Shown here: one piece after another, positions 6,691 to 61,192 of the stretch | How positions within the stretch are numbered: the stretch's first letter is position 1 | How the letters are laid out: the number at the start of each line of letters is the position of its first letter | Assembly: GCA_013202845.1 (NCBI GenBank) | Contig: JABMPT010000010.1 | Location: forward strand, 59,876 to 123,875 | DNA from: Candidatus Woesearchaeota archaeon | GTDB taxonomy: Archaea; Nanobdellota; Nanobdellia; Woesearchaeales; GCA-2686295 | Direction of reading: 5' to 3' | Length of the DNA: 64,000 nucleotides | The notes under the pieces: generated by a model | The model's input: the letters and a program-made list of their open reading frames with translations, nothing else | Database searches by the model: none | What the model was told of the DNA's origin: nothing | Made by a program: the position numbers and the translations under genes

Positions 6691-7548
6691 ATGATTCCGG
6701 TCAACTATGCCTTTGCCTTCTTTGGATTGCTTTTCGCTTCTATATTTGACATCAAAACAAGAGAGATACCTGACTGGCTGAACTATTCATTGATTGGCTT
6801 TGGTTTCGGAACTTCGATAATCCTTTCAATAACAAACCTGAATTACTGGATATTTGTATATTCACTGCTAGGTTTTCTGGCTGGACTGATAATATCATTA
6901 GTTTTCTACTATACAGGGCAGTGGGGTGGAGGAGATGCAAAGATGATGATGGCTTTGGGAGCATTGATAGGACTGGACTTTCATTCTGGCTTCCCGATAT
7001 TTGTTGTGTTGTTGCTCAACATCTTCATAATAGGAGCAATTTATGGCGCTATATGGAGTGTTTTTTTAGCTTTGAAGCACAGAAAACAGTTCAAGAAGAG
7101 CTTTAAAGAAATAATTAGGGAGAAAAACATCTTAATTATAAGAAAGACTATTTTAATTATAGTGGTCTTATTGTTGTTATTCTTATTCATAACTCCCACA
7201 TCTATGAAGCCATTCATAATTGGAATAGCAGCGTTCATATTCTTTGCATTCTACTTCTATATATACAGCAAAGCAGTGGAGAAGTCAGCGATGGAAAAAT
7301 ACATCCCTTTGGAGAAGCTCACAGAAGGAGACTGGGTCCTGGAAACAATATATATCAATGGAAAAAAGATATACAGTCCAAGCAATGAGGGAATAGATAA
7401 GAAAGAGATAAAGAAATTATTAGAGCTGAAGAAACATCACAAGAAGTCAAAGATAAAGATCAAAGAAGGAATTCCGTTCCTGCCAAGCTTCTTCATAGCG
7501 TTTATTGTTACTTTATTATTGGGTAATTGGGTTTTATGGGTGATTTAA
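6691..7548 (+). CDS. A24-family aspartic prepilin/preflagellin peptidase (FlaK/PibD-like)
   Basis: Polytopic membrane protein. Conserved Asp motifs FDIKTREIPD and GGGDAKMM (the GGGDxK of A24 peptidases). Confidence 0.75.
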   Translation: MIPVNYAFAFFGLLFASIFDIKTREIPDWLNYSLIGFGFGTSIILSITNLNYWIFVYSLLGFLAGLIISLVFYYTGQWGGGDAKMMMALGALIGLDFHSGFPIFVVLLLNIFIIGAIYGAIWSVFLALKHRKQFKKSFKEIIREKNILIIRKTILIIVVLLLLFLFITPTSMKPFIIGIAAFIFFAFYFYIYSKAVEKSAMEKYIPLEKLTEGDWVLETIYINGKKIYSPSNEGIDKKEIKKLLELKKHHKKSKIKIKEGIPFLPSFFIAFIVTLLLGNWVLWVI

Positions 7549-7550
7549 TA

Positions 7551-8135
7551 ATGAATAAGATAGCAGTAGATATTGTGTTATTACCATCAGAAGAGATGAT
7601 GGACAAAGCAATAGAGATAAATAAAAAATTATTAAAGAATAACGAACCTAAGATTGTGTTAAATAAAGAAAATTGTCTTCCACACATGTCTCTTTGTATG
7701 GGTGTTATCGACGAGAAAGATGTTGAGCTAGTTGGAAAAGAATTAACAACGATAAGCAAAAGATTCTCTGCTTTTGATTTGTCTTTTAATGAGCTTTTTA
7801 CTTCTGATCTTGGTTTTACAGAACTATCATCTAATAAGCCTGATGATCTTCAATTACTCCATGAAACTATTACTGTTAAACTTGCAAAATTCATGACTTA
7901 TAATGCAACTAGCGACATGCTTTTGTTATCAGATGGAGAGGAGAGTTTTTCTGCTGGTTGGATTAGTGGTTATCATAATAATGCTAGTTTTGAAAATTTT
8001 AGTCCTCATGTGACTGTTGGATATGGTGTTCCAGTCGTTGATCTCCCAATCAATTTTACTGCTTCAAAACTTGCTATTTGTCATATAGGAAATTATTGCA
8101 CTTGTAGAAAACTCTTGTTTGAAAAAACTCTATAA
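7551..8135 (+). CDS. 2H phosphoesterase superfamily protein (LigT/ThpR-like), paralog 1
   Basis: Two H-x-[ST]-x motifs, PHMSLCMG and PHVTVGYG. N-terminal IAVDIVLLPSEE. The ORF track starts at a TTG inside the upstream gene; the ATG at 7551 directly follows the upstream stop. Confidence 0.7.
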   Translation: MNKIAVDIVLLPSEEMMDKAIEINKKLLKNNEPKIVLNKENCLPHMSLCMGVIDEKDVELVGKELTTISKRFSAFDLSFNELFTSDLGFTELSSNKPDDLQLLHETITVKLAKFMTYNATSDMLLLSDGEESFSAGWISGYHNNASFENFSPHVTVGYGVPVVDLPINFTASKLAICHIGNYCTCRKLLFEKTL

Positions 8136-8163
8136 GATAATTTGTTATTAATATTGATATAAA

Positions 8164-8766
8164 ATGGAAAAAATTGCTATTGATATCGCATTATTATTGC
8201 CTGAAGAAATTAATAATATTTGTATTAATATTAATAGAAGTAAAGGAGTTGAAGCTTTTTCCGACTTAAGTAAACATGATAATCACCCTCATATAACTCT
8301 TGCAATGGGAGTAATCGATGAAAACCAGATTGATATTGTTAATAACAAATTAGAAGAAATTACTAAGGATTTTTCAGGTTTTGATTTAGAAATAATTGAT
8401 ATTTTCAATGAAACCACTCCTGAAAATAAAACTTCAACAAGCTTTGTTATCAAACCAAATGCTGAACTAAAAGAATTACATGAAAAAATAATGAATGAAT
8501 TATTACCAATCTTCACTTATAATGTTTCAAAAGAAATGTTTTTCATTGATTCAGATGAAGATTATAAAGAAGTTTCTGAGTATTGGGTTGAAAACTATGG
8601 TACAAATCATAAATATCCTGAAAAGTACAGACCACATATTAGTTTAAAATGTAGACATGGAAAATATAATTCTTTTCCTGTTAAATTCTTCACAAATAAA
8701 CTGGTTATGTGTCAACTTGGTAATTATTGCACTTGTAGAAAAATTCTTTTCGAAGTAAATCTCTAA
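8164..8766 (+). CDS. 2H phosphoesterase superfamily protein, paralog 2 (tandem duplicate)
   Basis: HPHITLAMG and RPHISLKCR H-x-T/S-x motifs. Shares N-terminal IAIDIALLLPEE and C-terminal GNYCTCRKILFE with paralog 1. Confidence 0.7.
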   Translation: MEKIAIDIALLLPEEINNICININRSKGVEAFSDLSKHDNHPHITLAMGVIDENQIDIVNNKLEEITKDFSGFDLEIIDIFNETTPENKTSTSFVIKPNAELKELHEKIMNELLPIFTYNVSKEMFFIDSDEDYKEVSEYWVENYGTNHKYPEKYRPHISLKCRHGKYNSFPVKFFTNKLVMCQLGNYCTCRKILFEVNL

Positions 8767-9266
8767 GGTATCCTATCCAATTGTTTCAATAGATAATTCT
8801 CTTCCTCATCAGACATTGCATCTTCTTCTTTTTCTTTCTTGTCCATCTTTGGAGGATGTTCTGGTTTTTCCTCTTTAGCTTCTTCCTTTGGAACGATTAT
8901 CTTTCCAGAAATAGAACTTGTAGCTGCATCCAGATCAGCAGTTTGTAATTGTTTTGGCTTCCATTGAAAGTTCAAACCATCGTCCTGCATCCTTGCAATT
9001 ACTTCCATGTAGAACTCTTCACCTTCATAAGTTATGATATTAGTACCCTGAGCTCCTATTGTTTCAAAGAGCATGGTGGCTGCGTAACTTGCTAAGTAGA
9101 ATAGATGTTCTGAATGCTCTTCAGAAAGATCATCCATCATCTTGACTTCTTGTTTAGGAATTATGACTATATGCCCTTTTGCAGCGGGTTTCTCGACGAG
9201 AACAGCTGCAGCTATGTCATCCTCGTAGATTATCCTGTCTTTCTTCTCAAGCAGTTCTCTTTTCAT
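8763..9266 (-). CDS. HIT-fold protein with fully degenerate histidine triad and an acidic/Lys-rich C-terminal tail
   Basis: IIYEDDIAAAVLVEKPAAKGHIVIIPK matches the HIT N-terminal half. The triad position reads EFYMEVIAR, with no His. Tail KEEKPEHPPKMDKKEKEEDAMSDEEE. Confidence 0.5.
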   Translation of the reverse strand: MKRELLEKKDRIIYEDDIAAAVLVEKPAAKGHIVIIPKQEVKMMDDLSEEHSEHLFYLASYAATMLFETIGAQGTNIITYEGEEFYMEVIARMQDDGLNFQWKPKQLQTADLDAATSSISGKIIVPKEEAKEEKPEHPPKMDKKEKEEDAMSDEEENYLLKQLDRIP

Positions 9267-11614: not shown

Positions 11615-13294
11615 ATGAAAAGCTATTTTGAAGAGCTGATTGATTTCATAAAGAAAGAGAAACCAAACAAACAGAAACTCAACAACAAGAAGATAGAGCT
11701 CTGCTCCAAGCACAAAATAAAGAAGATACCTACAGATATAGAAGTATTGTGCAATGCAAAAGAAGAAGATATTGCAAACCTGAGTAAATTTCTCGTTACA
11801 AAACCTACAAGAACCATTAGCGGAGTTGCTGTAATTGCAGTTATGAGCGCTCCATTCAACTGTCCCCATGGCAGATGCACATATTGTCCTGGAGGCCTAA
11901 AAAGCCATTTCGGCAATGTTCCGCAGTCATATACTGGCAACGAGCCATCTACAATGAGGGGCATAAGAAATGAGTATGACTCTTACAGAATTGTTTTTAA
12001 CAGACTAGAGCAATACATTGTTCTTGGCCAGAATCCTGAAAAAGCAGAAGTTATTGTGATGGGAGGAACATTCCCAGCATTTAAGGAGGATTACAAGAAA
12101 GAGTTCATAAGGAACATATACAAGGCTTTAAACGACTTTTCAAAGCAATTCTATGTGAAAGGCAAGCTAGATATCAAACGCTTCAGAGACTTCTTTGAAT
12201 TACCTGGCAAAGTCAACGATAAACAAAGGCAGGAGAATATAAAGAAAAGAGTTTTGGACTTAAAGAACAAGAATATTAGAAGTTTTGACAAAGAAAAGAA
12301 ACTGAATGAGAAATCAGAGATAAGATGCATTGGATTGACAATCGAAACAAAGCCAGACTGGGGATTGTTGAAGCATGGCAATGAAATGCTAGATTATGGT
12401 TGCACAAGAGTCGAATTAGGCATACAAACAACTTATGACGATGTCTTGAGAGCAATCAACAGAGGCCATGGATTAAAAGAGTCAATAGAATCAATAAGGA
12501 CATTGAAGGATTTAGGCTTTAAGATCAATTATCATATGATGCCAGGGCTTCCAGGAGTCACAAAAGAGAAAGATTTAGAGTCTTTGAAAGAGATTTTTGA
12601 AAACTCTGATTTCAAGCCAGATATGCTAAAGATATATCCTACACTTGTAATGCCAGGAACACCTTTATATGCACAGTATAAGAAAGGCAAATACAAGCCG
12701 ATAACAACTGCCATAGCAGCAGATATAATTGTAGAAGCAAAGAAGTTCGTGCCAAAATATTGCAGAATAATGAGGATACAGAGAGACATCCCTACTAAAG
12801 TCACAGAAGCAGGCGTAGACAGAACAAATCTAAGGCAATATGTTGAGAAATTACAGAAAGAGAAAGGAGTTGTTTGCAACTGTATAAGATGTCGAGAAAT
12901 AAAAAGAAAAGAGATTAAAGGAAAGCCAAAACTTAAAGTTTTAGAATATGAAGCTTCTAAAGGAAAGGAATTCTTTATGTCATTTGTCGACGACAACGAC
13001 CGTTTGTTAGGTTTTTGCAGATTAAGGTTTCCATCCCAGAGCTTGAGAAAAGAAATAACCAATAACAGCGCTATAATTAGGGAATTACACGTCTATGGCA
13101 CTGCAATCGGCTTGAAAAAAGAAGGTAGAGTACAGCATATTGGTTTAGGTAAACAACTCGTCAAAAAAGCTGAAGAAATAGCAAAAAAGAATTCTAAAGA
13201 CAAAGTTGTGGTAATTAGCGGAGTTGGAGTCAAGGAATACTATAGAAAGCTTGGTTATTCTGATGATGGAGTTTATGTGAGTAAAGCGTTATAA
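11615..13294 (+). CDS. elp3: Elongator complex protein 3 homolog (radical SAM + GNAT; tRNA wobble uridine modification)
   Basis: GVAVIAVMSAPFNCPHGRCTYCPGG radical-SAM cluster region of Elp3. C-terminal GNAT with RELHVYG...GLGKQLV. Confidence 0.9.
   Translation: MKSYFEELIDFIKKEKPNKQKLNNKKIELCSKHKIKKIPTDIEVLCNAKEEDIANLSKFLVTKPTRTISGVAVIAVMSAPFNCPHGRCTYCPGGLKSHFGNVPQSYTGNEPSTMRGIRNEYDSYRIVFNRLEQYIVLGQNPEKAEVIVMGGTFPAFKEDYKKEFIRNIYKALNDFSKQFYVKGKLDIKRFRDFFELPGKVNDKQRQENIKKRVLDLKNKNIRSFDKEKKLNEKSEIRCIGLTIETKPDWGLLKHGNEMLDYGCTRVELGIQTTYDDVLRAINRGHGLKESIESIRTLKDLGFKINYHMMPGLPGVTKEKDLESLKEIFENSDFKPDMLKIYPTLVMPGTPLYAQYKKGKYKPITTAIAADIIVEAKKFVPKYCRIMRIQRDIPTKVTEAGVDRTNLRQYVEKLQKEKGVVCNCIRCREIKRKEIKGKPKLKVLEYEASKGKEFFMSFVDDNDRLLGFCRLRFPSQSLRKEITNNSAIIRELHVYGTAIGLKKEGRVQHIGLGKQLVKKAEEIAKKNSKDKVVVISGVGVKEYYRKLGYSDDGVYVSKAL
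13263..13294 (+). repeat. Direct repeat copy 1 (elp3 3' end)
   Basis: atgatggagtTtatgtgagtaaagcgttataa. Copy 2 is at 14126..14157 with one mismatch. Confidence 0.85.
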
Positions 13295-13317
13295 ATATCT
13301 TCTAATTCCAAATTCAT

Positions 13318-14100
13318 ATGTTACTTGAAGCACATCAAATTGTAAGAGAAAGAACAAAAGATTTAATCAGTAGATTTCAAAAAAGAGATGTTTCTTTGCA
13401 ACAATTTACTATAGAAGCAGATTTACAAGGTTCAGAGAAATCATTACAAAGAATATTAACTGCTGATTATGACCTAAGATTTGATGGAAGTCCTTTTCAA
13501 TCACATCCAATCTCAGCCGTTTATCTAGCAAGATGGTTGGCAGAAGGACTCAATGTGAAACATCTGGATAGGGATACCTTAGAACATGACCATTTTGAAG
13601 AAATTTATCAGAGAGGCGTCAAACTTGCATCTGCATTAAAACAATTCAAAAATGATGGAGGAGAAGTGGATTCAGCCATACTTACAGATGGAAATTCGCA
13701 CTATAATAATATAATAACTAAAAAAGTTCACAAGATTGTTCAAATAGAAAAACTAGGAACGCTGAAACATAAAATAGTAGCCCTTGCAGACGGACTTGAT
13801 AATAGCAGTGATATGAATTATGCTCCAGAGCATATTAGAGCCTTGAAATTGTGCAGATTTTTTTTATCTCCGCCCAAACTCGGGCTTGAAATATATACAG
13901 ATATTCCTGATGATATTAGAACAAAAACAGAATTTTTTATGAGTGAGATCATGCAACAAAATGGAGTAGATGAATCAATGCTAAACAGAGAATACGAGTA
14001 TTATCAAAAAACCTATCACAGTAAGAATAAAATTATCCAACAAAATGTTCAAAAGTATGGACAATTATTAGAACAAGTCTTTAACACTGTTTTGTCCTAA
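13318..14100 (+). CDS. Hypothetical protein, cargo of the repeat-flanked insertion at the elp3 3' end
   Basis: Clean 260-aa ORF with no recognised motif, bracketed by the 32-nt direct repeats. Confidence 0.45.
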   Translation: MLLEAHQIVRERTKDLISRFQKRDVSLQQFTIEADLQGSEKSLQRILTADYDLRFDGSPFQSHPISAVYLARWLAEGLNVKHLDRDTLEHDHFEEIYQRGVKLASALKQFKNDGGEVDSAILTDGNSHYNNIITKKVHKIVQIEKLGTLKHKIVALADGLDNSSDMNYAPEHIRALKLCRFFLSPPKLGLEIYTDIPDDIRTKTEFFMSEIMQQNGVDESMLNREYEYYQKTYHSKNKIIQQNVQKYGQLLEQVFNTVLS

Positions 14101-14125
14101 TTATTTCTTATCGACAACTACAGAA

Positions 14126-14157
14126 TGATGGAGTCTATGTGAGTAAAGCGTTATAAT
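14126..14157 (+). repeat. Direct repeat copy 2; would also encode the elp3 C-terminus NDGVYVSKAL*
   Basis: atgatggagtCtatgtgagtaaagcgttataa, with 31 of 32 identity to 13263..13294. Confidence 0.85.
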
Positions 14158-14220
14158 TTTCTCCTTTCGAGTAGTCAAAAAAGAAATGTTTATATAGTTA
14201 CTAAACACTCTCTGTGTCTT

Positions 14221-17103
14221 ATGGGGGCCACAGATGAGAGTGAAAAGCAATCGTTAGATAGTATTATTCTTGAACCGGGTATAAAATGTATTGGTGAATC
14301 AAGCTTTAAAACATTCCCCAACTATAGAGATGAGATTGAACAATTTCTTAAAGAAAGGAAGAATAGAACTAAGAAAGAACTACCCTTTGTAAACCAAGAA
14401 CAGACTTTCATTAAGCTTGCAAGAGCGCTTTCTTCAGCATATCCTTATGTTGTTTTGATAGGAGAACAAGGAATAGGAAAGTCTATGGTTCTGGACTATA
14501 CTGTAAGAGCACTTACAGGCGAGATAAAACTTTCTGAAGTCAAAAAACTTGTCCCTGAAGCTGCACCGCTCCTTAAACAAATGAAAGACAAAGCAAGACA
14601 ATTTGAGAACAGAAACTATCTGTTAATGCCAAATCTTAAAGAGCCTATGAAGGTCAAAGCTATTCCTTATACAAAACCAGACGATATTAATCATGATTTC
14701 GAACTAGCAGAAGACTTTTGTTTGGAGATTTCACAACTACTTACATACTATATTACCAACAACAAGGAGAGTGTGAAAGTTAATCTGAGCGAAAGACAAT
14801 TGAGAAAGCTTGTTTTATCTAAGGTACATGAAATGTATATGGAGTTGTATGCAGACATACTTTTAACTCTTTCTAACAAGATAAAAGAAAAACCAACCAT
14901 AAAGGAATCTTTGGACAATATGATATCCGTAGTTAAACTTAAACCTCCACAAAATCTGAACCAAGATGTGCCTAAAGCAGAATGGAAATTTTATGTGAAA
15001 AGAGGAAAGAACTCCAATTTTCTGGAATATACTACAGAAGCAGGATTCACAGCTCAAAGAGCCCAATTATCAATTGAAGACATAGAACAAGGTTTAGAAA
15101 AAACATATGTTCATGTATCTATCAGCAATTCATGGAAAGGATTCTTAGCTGAAATGAAAAGAATTAAAGTTCTTGGAAAACCAGCAAACTTTTGTGAAAC
15201 AGTAGTTAAAGAGGAATTTGAAAAATATAATACAGAAATACTTGAGAAAGCAATTCAGAGGCAAAAAAGAAAACCAAAACCAACTCAGATTGATTTTGAT
15301 CTAGACTTGATCAGAAGAGTGAATGAATATGATCCTGCAAAAAAGATCTCAAAAGAAACCATCAATGATATCATGTCAGAGATTAAAACAGTCGTTGATG
15401 AATTTACAAAGCCCGCCAAGAATGATGAACTAAAGAATCAGATGCTATCAGTATATGAATTCTTCAACACAGAGAAAAATTTACTTAAAATAGTGATGGG
15501 CACAATGCTCCGAGAAATAGAAAATATGGAAAAGACACCTCCTGGTAAACTAATAAAACAACCTAGTTTTGACCTACCACATGGAGTCTCATATCTGGCC
15601 ATAGATGACATAATGAGTGTGAACCTGTTGGCAGATTACGCCGCACCCACAAAGAGGATTAGCTGGTCAAAAATAGTAGATACAGATCCACAAACCCTGT
15701 TTTGTTCATACAATGAACTACAGCTACCTCCACACATGGCTATAGCTTCTCTAGGTGAATTATTCAAGAGCAGCATCTTGTTATTCACAGATTCATTCAG
15801 TGATTTCATCAGCACGATAACATCCAACAGAGAGATGAGTAAAGGAATGAGAGAACAATTCCTTGATTATCTGCAAACTGGAATAATAACTTTTGTCAAT
15901 GAAGGAGTAACCTATCAATTTGAGGCGCCAAGAATAATACTTGGTTGTGACAACGAAGATCCTTTCATGACATATAGAGCTGGAACTGGTGAGAAAAGAG
16001 ATGAAACTGGTCTAAGAGGAAGGATAACAGCACTCCCAGTATCTGAAGTGATAGAAAACACTCTTGAAGCAAGAAAAGGCACCTTAACTGTGTTATATGA
16101 TACAATCGATAAATTCAACAACGAGAGAGGGGTTGATATCACATTAGACATAAATGCTGCAAACATGCTGTTAAGAGAAATGGTGCCCAAGGAAAGTCTT
16201 ATATTACTAAAATACAGGGATTTATGGAAATTGACAGAAGATGTATGTGCATATGCTGTGTCAAAGAACACTACAAATATTACAGCAAATTTGTTAAAAC
16301 AAAGAACAAAAGATTATCTGCCACCAGGATTCTTCAGATTTGTAGAGTTTGAAACAGAGCACGGAGGATATTTTGATATGCCTGCAAAAGCTGTAGGTCA
16401 TGTGAATGGATTAACAGTACGTGATTCTAGTCCTGGAAGTGTCCTAAAGAACAGATCTCAATTTCTGGCTGTAATGGACAAAACAAAAACAAATGTTAAA
16501 CATTTCGAACTGGTTGACGCTACTAGTGAAAAAACTGATGACAACACAATAAAAAGCTATGAATTGGCGGTGGACTACATAAGAGGATTGCTTTCAGATA
16601 AAAAACTTAAACTATTCGAAGGTGGGGATTGGCAATTGAAGACTCACTTTGGAGGATTCTGGGACAAAATTGGAGGTCCATCCACATCAATGGGAATGGC
16701 AATCAGCATACTATCAGCATTTTCAGGGGAAGAAATGTATAAGAACAGGTTCATAACAGGAACCATAGACCCAATAAATGGAAATGCAGGCATCATAGGA
16801 GGAACTTACCACAAATCTTTGATACCGATGAGACTGAAAGAGCTGTCACCAGACAATGAAAAGATGTATTTCCTATTTCCTGCTGCAAACATGAAAGAAT
16901 TCACTAAAGATGTCATATTCGACCCTTTTGAAGTGCAAAAAAATATTACTTGTTTGCCATATGAAAACTTTGAGCAAGCATATTACCTACTTTCATGCGG
17001 AGCAAACATTAGTAAGAAGAATTGGGAAGATTCAAAAAATCAGGGGAAAACAAGACTCGAAAAGACCCTGAAAGAAGTTAATAAAAGATTTGGAGTTAAA
17101 TAA
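14221..17103 (+). CDS. Divergent soluble LonB-like protein: P-loop, about 450-aa insertion, degenerate Walker B, C-terminal Lon Ser-Lys protease domain
   Basis: Walker A GEQGIGKS. LLFTDSFSDF aligns to Lon[11 protein letters not shown] (DE becomes DS). ILGCDN aligns to sensor-1 ILIAAGN. Protease domain GPSTSMGMAISILSAFSG...IIGGTYHK, against Lon[18 protein letters not shown]...IGGVSSK in this same window. Confidence 0.65.
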   Translation: MGATDESEKQSLDSIILEPGIKCIGESSFKTFPNYRDEIEQFLKERKNRTKKELPFVNQEQTFIKLARALSSAYPYVVLIGEQGIGKSMVLDYTVRALTGEIKLSEVKKLVPEAAPLLKQMKDKARQFENRNYLLMPNLKEPMKVKAIPYTKPDDINHDFELAEDFCLEISQLLTYYITNNKESVKVNLSERQLRKLVLSKVHEMYMELYADILLTLSNKIKEKPTIKESLDNMISVVKLKPPQNLNQDVPKAEWKFYVKRGKNSNFLEYTTEAGFTAQRAQLSIEDIEQGLEKTYVHVSISNSWKGFLAEMKRIKVLGKPANFCETVVKEEFEKYNTEILEKAIQRQKRKPKPTQIDFDLDLIRRVNEYDPAKKISKETINDIMSEIKTVVDEFTKPAKNDELKNQMLSVYEFFNTEKNLLKIVMGTMLREIENMEKTPPGKLIKQPSFDLPHGVSYLAIDDIMSVNLLADYAAPTKRISWSKIVDTDPQTLFCSYNELQLPPHMAIASLGELFKSSILLFTDSFSDFISTITSNREMSKGMREQFLDYLQTGIITFVNEGVTYQFEAPRIILGCDNEDPFMTYRAGTGEKRDETGLRGRITALPVSEVIENTLEARKGTLTVLYDTIDKFNNERGVDITLDINAANMLLREMVPKESLILLKYRDLWKLTEDVCAYAVSKNTTNITANLLKQRTKDYLPPGFFRFVEFETEHGGYFDMPAKAVGHVNGLTVRDSSPGSVLKNRSQFLAVMDKTKTNVKHFELVDATSEKTDDNTIKSYELAVDYIRGLLSDKKLKLFEGGDWQLKTHFGGFWDKIGGPSTSMGMAISILSAFSGEEMYKNRFITGTIDPINGNAGIIGGTYHKSLIPMRLKELSPDNEKMYFLFPAANMKEFTKDVIFDPFEVQKNITCLPYENFEQAYYLLSCGANISKKNWEDSKNQGKTRLEKTLKEVNKRFGVK

Positions 17104-59305: not shown

Positions 59306-61192
59306 ATGAAAAAGAGGGAGTTTGGCTTCAAAACTACAAAAGAGATAAAGGTTTCTAAAAAGATTGTAGATCAAGTCATTGGTCAGGAAGCAGCTGTAAA
59401 TGTAATAAGGAAAGCATCAGCGCAGAGAAGACATGTTCTATTAATAGGAGAGCCTGGAACAGGAAAATCCATGCTCGGGCTTGCTTTAGCAGAGCTCCTG
59501 CCAAAAGAGAAACTTGTCGATGTGCTTGCATTTCCAAACCCAAACGATGAAAACCAGCCATTGATAAGAACAGTACCAGGAGGCAAGGGAAGAGACATGG
59601 TTGCAAAAGCAAAGATGAAGAACTTTGGCGGTTTCAAGAACACCAACATGATAATGCTCATCTTCGCTTTGATAATCGGCATGATGCCCTACTGGTGGTG
59701 GAAAGCAGGACATATAACAGATGTAATCTACGCTGCACTCATCATATCAGGAATAATAATCATTTTCGGCGTAGTGATGGCCATGAACCTTGGAAGAAGG
59801 ATGGAGATGAATAAAACATCTGCTCCTAAAGTCATAGTTGATAATTTCAAGAAAAAAGAAGCGCCTTTCTTCGACGCTACAGGCGCACATGCAGGAGCAC
59901 TTCTAGGAGATGTATTACATGACCCATTCCAGTCAGGAGGATTGGGAACACCAGCACATGAAAGGGTAGTTGCAGGAATGATACACAAAGCGCATATGGG
60001 AGTTTTGTTCATAGACGAGATCGCTACATTACAACCAGCAACCCAGCAAGAATTACTAACTTCATTACAAGAAGGAAAATATGCTATAACAGGACAATCA
60101 GAGAGAAGCGCTGGAGCAATGGTTAGAACAGAAGCAGTTCCTTGTAAATTCATATTGATAGCGGCTGGAAATTTCGAAACAGTCAGGAACCTGCATCCAG
60201 CCCTAAGGTCAAGAATAAGTGGTTATGGTTATGAAGTATATATGAAAGAAACTATACCAGACAACCAGGAAAACAGGGAGAGAATGGGACAGTTTGTCGC
60301 TCAGGAAGTAGTGAAGGACGGCAAGATACCACATTTCTCAAGAGAAGCAGTTCTATACATGGTTAACGAAGCCAGGAGAAAAGCCAACAGAAAAGGACAC
60401 CTAACATTAAGATTCAGAGAGTTGGGCGGACTAGTAAGAGCTGCAGGAGACATTGCAGTAGAAGAAAAAGCAAAGATAGTGCAGCCAAAACACATAGTCA
60501 AAGCAAAAAAAATAGCTAAATCACTAGAGCACCAGATAGCAGACCAGATAATAGAGAGGAAAAAAGAATATGAAGTGATAGTAACAGAAGGAAAGAGAAT
60601 CGGAAGGGCCAACGGTCTGGCAGTGATGGGCACAGGCACAAGCTATTCAGGAATCATACTACCAATAGAATCAGAAGTCACACCGGGCGGAAAAGAATCG
60701 GAAATCATAGCAACCGGAAAGCTGGGAGAGATTGCAAAAGAGGCAATAACGAACGTTTCCGCCATTATCAAGAAATTCTTTGGGGAAGATATCAAAGAAA
60801 CATACGACATTTATGTGCAGTTCCTCCAAACTTATGAAGGAGTGGAAGGAGACTCTGCATCCATCGCAGTTGCAACAACGATAATCTCTGCCTTTAAAGG
60901 AGTGCCGATAAAGCAGGATTATGCAATGACAGGATCATTATCTGTCAGAGGAGAAGTTCTGCCGATAGGCGGTGTTTCATCAAAGATAGAAGCGGCAATC
61001 GACGCAGGAATAGCAAATGTGTTGGTTCCAAGGTCAAACTTGCAAGACATCGTGGTCGATTCAGAAAGACTAAAGAAGATAAAAGTAATGCCAGTAGACA
61101 CGATATTCGACGTTCTAAAACTGGCTTTGGACTGGAAAGGAAAAGAGAAAATCTTCAAAAAAATAGAAAAAGCAAGTAAAAAAAAATATTAA
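59306..61192 (+). CDS. lonB: Archaeal membrane-bound Lon protease (LonB)
   Basis: Walker A GEPGTGKS. Two-helix membrane insertion. Walker B VLFIDEI. Sensor AAGN. Protease [17 protein letters not shown]...[12 protein letters not shown] (Ser-Lys dyad). Confidence 0.9.

Follow-up and report, generated by a model that had tools for sequence, protein, structure and literature searches.

The Lon-like gene and its protein

A stretch of 64,000 nucleotides (nt) from a Candidatus Woesearchaeota archaeon (assembly GCA_013202845.1, contig JABMPT010000010.1, positions 59,876 to 123,875 of the forward strand), hereafter called the window, carries two genes related to Lon proteases, both on the plus strand, as are the motifs and domains of the first of them, its candidate TATA box and the cassette described below. 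The first, with which we are concerned here, is a complete open reading frame (ORF) at 14221..17103, in exact agreement with the coordinates of an initial annotation made from the sequence alone. It encodes a soluble Lon-like protease of 960 amino acids (aa; P0001), modelled by AlphaFold2 with a predicted local distance difference test score (pLDDT) of 89.4 and a predicted template modelling score (pTM) of 0.73. An identical protein is publicly available as 'hypothetical protein HQ533_04000 [Candidatus Woesearchaeota archaeon]', and is present in several independent assemblies on contigs of up to 138 kb. The second gene, at 59306..61192, was used as a comparator. It had been described as a canonical membrane-anchored LonB, and this it is: it scores 827.8 bits against TIGR00764 (curated cutoff 516.6), has a hydrophobic transmembrane segment with a Kyte-Doolittle maximum of 2.81, and is named LonB in its sources.

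Against TIGR00764, the 960-aa protein scores 17.8 bits. When used as a single query, it gave sub-threshold matches to AAA_16 at residues 59-101 (E 0.0038), to Lon_C at residues 818-872 (E 0.018) and to LonB and LonC models at residues 723-866 (E ~1e-4 to 2e-3), while its best match in PDB was 8dvh, the protease domain of BsLonBA (Bacillus subtilis 'LonB'), at E 4e-4. By BLASTP, the LonB of the window was matched collinearly in two regions, namely those of the P-loop (E 0.002) and of the Ser...Lys pair (E 9e-5).

Family extent and phylogeny

By searching 1.84 billion representatives exhaustively with HMMER, with the family counted as clusters at 50% identity, we identified 79 representatives at E <= 1e-3, of which 59 reached E <= 1e-30. 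Most of them are 930-1030 aa long and align end to end, and no canonical Lon was found among the 79. The family was detected by this search only. A word-indexed homolog search with the single 960-aa protein returned the query itself, and when repeated with alignment A1, i.e. 45 full-length family members to which all counts out of 45 in the following refer, it returned the query, LonA and a group of archaeal AAA+Lon_C proteins of 904-920 aa, with no further family member. 'Hypothetical protein' is the name of every member that is named in its source, and no Pfam domain is recorded for these members. Where an organism label exists, the member belongs to Woesearchaeota/Nanobdellota, except for the unclassified 'archaeon UBA583' and one 4-kb contig binned as Methanosarcinales. 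This contig (L007, CAZTPT010000069.1, 4.3 kb, from a metagenome-assembled genome of an 'uncultured Methanosarcinales archaeon') is probably mis-binned, since all other taxonomically labelled loci are from Woesearchaeota or Nanobdellota; its label could also be the trace of an association between a DPANN archaeon and its host.

Divergence within the family amounts to 16-45% identity, and the Pfam domain Lon_C was found in 32 of the 45 members. In PDB, the A1 profile matched TonLonB (3k1j, E 6e-30) over two stretches, one at the P-loop and the other reaching from the Arg-finger motif via the lid into the protease domain. Further matches were to LonB protease domains alone (~5e-21), BsLonBA (2e-19), LonC (3e-15, restricted to the protease domain, 58 bits as compared to 107 for LonB) and LonA (~1e-14). 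When A1 was aligned to a LonB profile with hhalign, the match covered residues 503-928 (probability 99.7%, E 1.3e-25) and paired PPH with PAH, IILGCDN with FILIAAGN, GLRGR601I with ALRSRI and YR666DL with FRELGG, in addition to the catalytic Ser and Lys. These searches place the C-terminal domain inside the Lon family (MEROPS S16, clan SJ), whose defining features are both found here, i.e. a Lon_C fold with a Ser-Lys dyad, and an AAA+ module (alpha/beta plus lid) N-terminal to the protease in a single chain. Together with the hydropathy data below, the profiles support the initial description, according to which the protein belongs to the Lon family, is membrane-free and has an AAA+/lid core resembling that of LonB.

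A neighbor-joining tree of the protease domain, based on capped distances and used for monophyly rather than for identifying a sister group, recovered the family as monophyletic in 192 of 200 bootstraps and as separate from DPANN LonB in 200 of 200. A phylogeny against LonB, LonC and BrxL had been suggested; the separation from LonB is clear in this tree, from which LonC and BrxL were left out. The mean protease-domain identity between the family and LonB is 24%, below the 35% between LonA and LonB. Because of this low identity and its monophyly, the family is, by these measures, a lineage that diverged long ago and did not arise by a recent duplication of LonB. The Glu-to-Ser change, first read as peculiar to one LonB paralog (see below), is instead a trait of a deep monophyletic family. 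As judged from sequence comparison, the family is a conserved, previously unannotated Lon subfamily, so far almost restricted to DPANN archaea (Woesearchaeota/Nanobdellota).

The distance from LonB also bears on the idea that the gene is a decaying, non-functional LonB duplicate. The sub-threshold profile matches of the single sequence and the missing Walker B Glu would fit such a fate. Full-length conservation across 79 clusters, retained functional residues, a confident predicted fold, the monophyly of the family far from the LonB of the genome, and the presence of the identical protein in several independent assemblies make it barely credible, and it was rejected on account of the family-wide conservation.

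The nucleotide site

The Walker A motif or P-loop, GEQGIGKS, is situated at residues 81-88 (14461..14484). As initially proposed, it lies opposite LonB GEPGTGKS in the BLASTP alignment; G81, G84 and G86 are present in all 45 members and K87 in 44. A Walker B-like strand, ILLFTDS, follows at residues 519-525 (15775..15795), with a conserved D524 (Asp in 43 members and Glu in two) and with Ser525 at the position of the Glu. Three observations identify D524 as the putative Walker B Asp, i.e. its near-invariance, its spacing of 19 residues from His505, which equals that of H218 and D237 in LonB, and the predicted structure around it, where the AlphaFold2 model has a beta-strand at 519-522 and a helix at 526-534. 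An exact Asp-Glu pair was found in a single member out of 45. In 29 members, among them the 960-aa protein and the relatives nearest to it (xDSF), only one acidic residue is present, so that neither register yields two side by side. The initial annotation had allowed for a conventional DE pair hidden by mis-registration, and in the 960-aa protein neither register contains one. On these counts the canonical pair is missing whichever register is adopted, and the loss of the Glu is a family trait.

The remaining elements of an AAA+ site were mainly located by hhalign. A pre-sensor-1 beta-hairpin (residues 555-568), strand beta4 and the sensor-1 Asn578 (IILGCDN) occupy 15883..15954, with strands at 555-560, 563-568 and 572-577. 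The alignment of ILGCDN to the LonB sensor-1 ILIAAGN agrees with the earlier one, and N578 is kept in 36 members. Arg601 (16021..16023; 44/45) aligns to the Arg finger of LonB (ALRSR-I), a role assigned by analogy with R484 of EcLonA (PMC9569914). The AAA+ alpha/lid subdomain comprises residues 603-720 (16027..16380), with profile positions 597-867 aligning to 266-526 of 3k1j, and contains Arg666 (16216-16218; 36/45), the counterpart of the LonB sensor-2 Arg. Conserved aromatic residues in the region equivalent to pore loop-1 are F494 (33/45) and F/Y497 (30/45).

Since conservation extends to the P-loop, the Walker B Asp, sensor-1, the Arg finger and sensor-2 alike, the sequences argue for a functional nucleotide site and not a decayed one. 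We read it as having been selected for binding, for assembly or for a slow, switch-like turnover. In AAA+ proteins, loss of the Walker B Glu normally stops hydrolysis, and ATP turnover by the 960-aa protein may accordingly be slow or absent; the initial description of it as ATPase-dead goes further than the sequences show.

Several points weigh against this picture. Firstly, profile aligners do not reproduce the Walker B register, as hhalign opens a six-residue gap both against a single LonB and against the LonB profile, and HMMER likewise gaps this stretch. The proposed Glu-to-Ser replacement is consequently upheld as regards spacing, predicted strand and conservation, while the aligners gap the motif. 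Secondly, adjacent acidic pairs near position 524 (DD/DE, in either register) occur in 16 of the 45 members. Thirdly, a polar residue (P, D, K or R) and not a hydrophobic one occupies position 523, so that D524 could lie one position along, in the slot of the Glu. Lastly, a conserved Arg finger, sensor-1 and sensor-2 fit a working ATPase, perhaps one with a non-canonical catalytic residue. An HMM (hidden Markov model) of residues 500-625 (alignment A5) had MCM AAA+ domains as its sole PDB matches, weak ones (E 0.065-1.6) and in a different register. The alignment of A5 to MCM extends from the alpha3 helix through the pre-sensor-1 hairpin to sensor-1, which fits the pre-sensor-1 hairpin superclade and is no evidence of specific kinship.

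The protein might accordingly be seen as a fully active ATP-dependent unfoldase-protease, a cytosolic LonB-like enzyme with Asp524 or another acidic residue as the catalytic base. The nucleotide-site residues listed above persist at 16-45% identity, the aromatics of the pore loop-1-equivalent region and the pre-sensor-1 hairpin are retained, DD or DE-like pairs exist in the 16 members mentioned, and AAA+ proteins of the DnaA type hydrolyze ATP with a DD Walker B. All the same we consider this explanation unlikely, given the rarity of the D-E pair, the single acidic residue in 29 members including the 960-aa protein, and the usual block of hydrolysis upon loss of the Glu. LonC, the nearest structural relative, also speaks against it, as this protein lacks the Walker B Glu and is inactive as an ATPase, and nevertheless degrades unfolded substrates independently of ATP (PMC3391209).

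The insertion domain

Walker A and Walker B are 437 aa apart, as compared to 183 in LonB. The enlarged segment is bounded on its N-terminal side by MPN (family consensus LPN; residues 136-138, 14626..14634), the counterpart of LonB FPNP in a comparison by eye, with L136 in 41, P137 in 37 and N138 in 40 of the 45 members. On the C-terminal side it is bounded by PPH (residues 503-505, 15727..15735), the counterpart of LonB TPAH according to hhalign, with His505 in 44 members. From L/MPN to PPH there are 366 aa in the 960-aa protein and ~138 aa in LonB; within the family, this length is 347-418 aa in the main clade and 277-335 aa in a distant clade. Inside it lies the family-specific insertion domain, residues 151-450 (14671..15570), which is soluble and takes the place of the membrane anchor of LonB and of the helical-hairpin extension of LonC. 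A large insert at the LonB anchor site had thus been correctly recognized. Its initial size of ~450 aa was overstated, because that figure corresponds to the distance between Walker A and Walker B and not to the non-homologous part, which is ~300 aa.

In 19-residue Kyte-Doolittle profiles, the maximum was 1.18 for the 960-aa protein and at most 1.71 for the 45 members, as compared to 2.81, at residue 140, for the LonB of the window. No hydropathy peak falls within the insertion, and a hydrophobic segment of transmembrane grade was found in none of the 45 members. The replacement of the LonB membrane hairpin by a soluble domain is thereby borne out.

Residues 150-452, modelled alone from an alignment of 23 sequences, gave a pLDDT of 92.1 and a pTM of 0.86. 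The predicted elements begin with a pair of long helices, followed by a beta-hairpin (234-241/252-259) and then by some seven more helices. The sequence profile of the insertion had no significant match in PDB, and no Pfam family covers the domain, which is thus unmatched in fold as well as in sequence. Conservation within the protein is also lowest here, the mean identity to the query being 18% as compared to 37% for the protease domain. According to the model, the ~300 aa of the insertion form a helical domain that is autonomous, includes a beta-hairpin and is placed at the anchor site. At the A1 columns equivalent to residues ~438-450 of the 960-aa protein, many members have a variable, low-complexity linker rich in Lys and Glu, of up to ~40 residues, which joins the end of the helical insertion to the return strand and is nearly absent in the window protein (PPGKLIKQPSF).

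The protease domain

The Lon S16 protease domain extends over residues 721-930 (16381..17010), with Pro820-Ser821 at 16678-16683 and Lys865 at 16813-16815. GPSTS...GGTYHK aligns to the catalytic Ser and Lys of both LonB and LonA, in line with the Ser-Lys protease domain first described. Ser821 and Lys865 are each kept in 42 of the 45 members, and their spacing is 43 residues in the 960-aa protein and in 33 members. Residue 820 is Pro in 35 members and Asp in four. LonB is described as invariably having Asp before the catalytic Ser, and the Ser-Lys spacing is reported as 42 in LonA and LonB alike (PMC9569914). The core is consequently of LonB type as regards ATPase and lid, and departs from it in the active-site signature, with Pro before Ser and a spacing of 43 instead of 42.

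In three members (P0042, P0047 and P0048), Ser821 and Lys865 are both lost, yet the P-loop persists and the architecture is still full-length; these proteins are probably pseudo-proteases derived within the family. The joint loss of the two residues suggests that the dyad is functional where present, and the P-loop kept after that loss suggests that the nucleotide-binding module is of value in its own right. These members might point to a nucleotide-gated holdase/chaperone or an adaptor scaffold in the first place, with proteolysis secondary or dispensable, the more so as an insertion-dependent chaperone activity is documented for LonC (PMC13069640). We find this improbable for the family as such, where the Ser-Lys dyad and the Lon motifs around it are among the most conserved positions (42/45), and where a loss that strikes Ser and Lys together itself implies a functional dyad elsewhere.

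Comparison with known Lon proteins

LonC (MEROPS S16.007; Meiothermus taiwanensis MtaLonC, Thermus TTC1975) is the best mechanistic analogue of the family. It is likewise soluble, with fused AAA-like and protease domains, and keeps a Walker A-like P-loop while missing the Walker B Glu. Its AAA alpha/beta domain is interrupted, at the place of the LonB anchor, by a large insertion that is helical and includes a beta-hairpin. The helical-hairpin extension of LonC consists of helices h1-h2, a beta-hairpin hook and helices h3-h4, and forms a basket over the AAA ring that serves in substrate recognition and chaperone activity (PMC13069640). The likeness of our insertion to this extension is one of position and of the order of secondary-structure elements only.

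The differences from LonC are nevertheless considerable. Sensor-1 and also sensor-2 have been substituted and the Arg finger is disrupted in LonC (PMC3391209), while here the Glu alone is missing and N578, R601 and R666 are retained in the numbers given above. LonC has D581-S582 at the active site, according to PDB entry titles, where our family has Pro before the catalytic Ser. LonC also has specific insertions in its protease domain, CX3GLX(G/E) in the alpha3-beta9 loop and phi-X2-A-phi (PMC3391209). The segment after Lys865, SLIPMRLKELSPDNEKMYFLFP, is longer than its LonB counterpart; compared by motif description, it contains no Cys and no GLx(G/E), nor does the family consensus. Finally, the profile match to LonC is confined to the protease domain, and the described LonC members are bacterial, whereas the present family is from DPANN archaea.

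Archaeal LonB (TIGR00764; TonLonB 3k1j, AfLonB, MjLonB) is the best profile match and coexists with the soluble protein in the same genome. Both share, in the same order, the P-loop, the (F/L)PN strand, the insertion site, P(A/P)H, the Walker B strand, the pre-sensor-1 hairpin, the sensor-1 Asn, an ALRSR-type Arg finger, a lid with the sensor-2 Arg, and the protease. Unlike LonB, the 960-aa protein has no transmembrane anchor between Walker A and Walker B and no canonical hhhhDE Walker B (ILLFTDS in its place); it falls far under the TIGR00764 cutoff, belongs to a separate clade with 24% protease identity to LonB, and has Pro instead of Asp before Ser and a spacing of 43 instead of 42. The combination of a Pro-Ser proteolytic site of A type with LonB-like ATPase features is shared with LonBA (8dvh; PMC9569914). 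LonBA differs by its N-terminal membrane-associated region and canonical Walker B, by a Walker A-Walker B distance of 82 residues as opposed to 437, without a large insertion (PMC9569914), and by its restriction to Firmicutes. As for LonA, its large N-terminal LON substrate-binding domain, PF02190, was not matched in the 960-aa protein, where the P-loop begins already at residue 81. LonA has a canonical Walker B and the present protein does not, the Pro-Ser active-site signature being its sole A-type trait.

The 904-920-aa group mentioned above (P0109-P0112, P0116, P0118-P0119, P0121-P0122 and P0125) combines a classical AAA domain (PF00004) with Lon_C. Among these proteins, one from Candidatus Bathyarchaeota bears the name 'AAA family ATPase', and others are called 'transitional endoplasmic reticulum ATPase'. 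They form a clade of their own in the neighbor-joining tree and represent another under-described Lon-like architecture.

Genomic neighborhood

The order of genes in the window is a HIT pair, an AbrB/MazE-domain protein, ELP3, a 260-aa ORF, the Lon-like gene, CNNM/CorC and an RsmB/F-type methyltransferase, with CNNM/CorC convergent to the Lon-like gene. The 260-aa ORF (13318-14100) belongs to an inserted cassette of ~860 bp at 13263..14165, where it is bracketed by two 41-nt direct repeats (13263-13303 and 14125-14165, 90% identical), the first of which is the 3' end of ELP3. In the closest syntenic relative (L003, 44% identity), ELP3 is directly followed by the Lon-like gene and the cassette is absent, so that the repeat-flanked insertion noted initially just upstream of the gene is confirmed. 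Because the ELP3 3' end is duplicated and ELP3 adjoins the Lon-like gene in L003, the 260-aa ORF is, on this comparison, an insertion unrelated to the protease. The cassette looks like a site-specific insertion that regenerates the ELP3 3' end. It contains no integrase, and its ORF had no match in Pfam, PHROG or viral contigs.

A candidate archaeal TATA box, TTTATATA, was read from the sequence at 14189..14196, 3' of the second repeat copy, with an A-rich stretch upstream. Archaeal TATA boxes are positioned at about -26 from the transcription start. As the candidate lies ~28 nt before the ATG, it suggests that the Lon-like gene is transcribed from a promoter of its own into an mRNA that is leaderless or nearly so.

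Examination of synteny at 15 loci, as had been suggested, revealed neighborhoods that differ from one another and consist of housekeeping genes, without an operon partner. No neighbor is conserved across the 15 loci, the maximum for any neighbor family being four. The only recurrent family is HIT, in the window, L003, L009 and L013, at variable distance and orientation; these genes, often two in tandem, are no more than a few kb away from the Lon-like gene. Metallophosphoesterase genes adjoin the Lon-like gene in L015 and L017, and Mg2+ transporters recur near it, with CNNM/CorC in the window and CorA in L018. All three types of recurrence are probably coincidences of compact genomes.

The initial annotation had also noted a resemblance to Lon-like components of phage-defence islands such as BrxL, the Lon-like AAA+ factor of BREX. 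A role in anti-virus defence, BrxL-like or as part of another Lon-associated immunity module, would be in keeping with the adjoining inserted cassette. This cassette is missing in L003, where the gene is kept. The 960-aa protein had no PADLOC family match even at E <= 1, and the BrxL models TIGR02653 (NCBIfam) and PDLC02506 (PADLOC) were not matched at E <= 1 either, whereas the LonB of the window was matched in both databases. PHROG gave no match, viral contigs contained no relatives of the family, and no BREX genes are nearby. The neighbors, e.g. ELP3, CNNM/CorC, the RsmB/F-type methyltransferase, HIT, tRNA synthetases and gyrase, differ between genomes, with none of their families in more than four of the 15 loci. 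The resemblance is not sustained by these data, and a defence function is very improbable.

Proposed mode of action and significance

The explanation that we consider fairly probable is that of a soluble, self-compartmentalising Ser-Lys protease, probably ring-forming, with a LonB/LonC-type AAA+ module and lid that binds nucleotide and hydrolyzes it poorly or not at all, and with the insertion as a crown. The AAA+ site would bind ATP or ADP and use it for ring assembly or gating. With ATP turnover absent or slow, there would be no power-stroke unfoldase action; proteins or peptides that are already unfolded would be degraded or held, as by LonC. The insertion domains of adjacent subunits may form a crown or basket above the pore and select substrates. 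The gene would be a stand-alone housekeeping gene with its own promoter, complementing the membrane LonB of the same genome and standing outside any defence system.

Going further, we tentatively suggest a DPANN-specific Lon subfamily with a recognition crown of new fold, in which the AAA+ site is a nucleotide-sensing switch and not a motor, a possible but rather doubtful extension. If true, proteolysis or holdase activity could be coupled to e.g. the supply of energy or nucleotides in a cell that depends on a host, and the family would constitute a 'Walker-B trap' AAA+ protease that occurs in nature and is stable in evolution, with a mechanism intermediate between those of LonB and LonC. To the current Lon subfamilies A, B and C and the proposed BA, the soluble family would add an architecture with four features in combination, namely an ATPase and lid resembling those of LonB, a Pro-Ser of LonA type, the absence of the Glu as in LonC but with the other ATP-site residues intact, and a new insert of ~300 aa. 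Woesearchaeota have small, reduced genomes. That the gene is kept in these beside a normal membrane LonB points to a role of its own, maintained by selection, in the cytosol, be it in protein quality control or in regulation. The family also offers a natural test case of an AAA+ ring that would bind ATP but probably without quick turnover, and a family model built from A1 would correct the 'hypothetical protein' annotation of its members.

Other features of the window

Two tandem paralogous ORFs of ~200 aa are found at 7536-8135 and 8164-8766 (37% identity, E 3e-36). The presence in each of them of two motifs of the form His-x-Thr/Ser (PHMSL...PHVTVG) suggests 2H-phosphoesterases (LigT-like). 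A 73-nt direct repeat (8067-8139 and 8698-8770) is explained by the 3' ends of the two ORFs.

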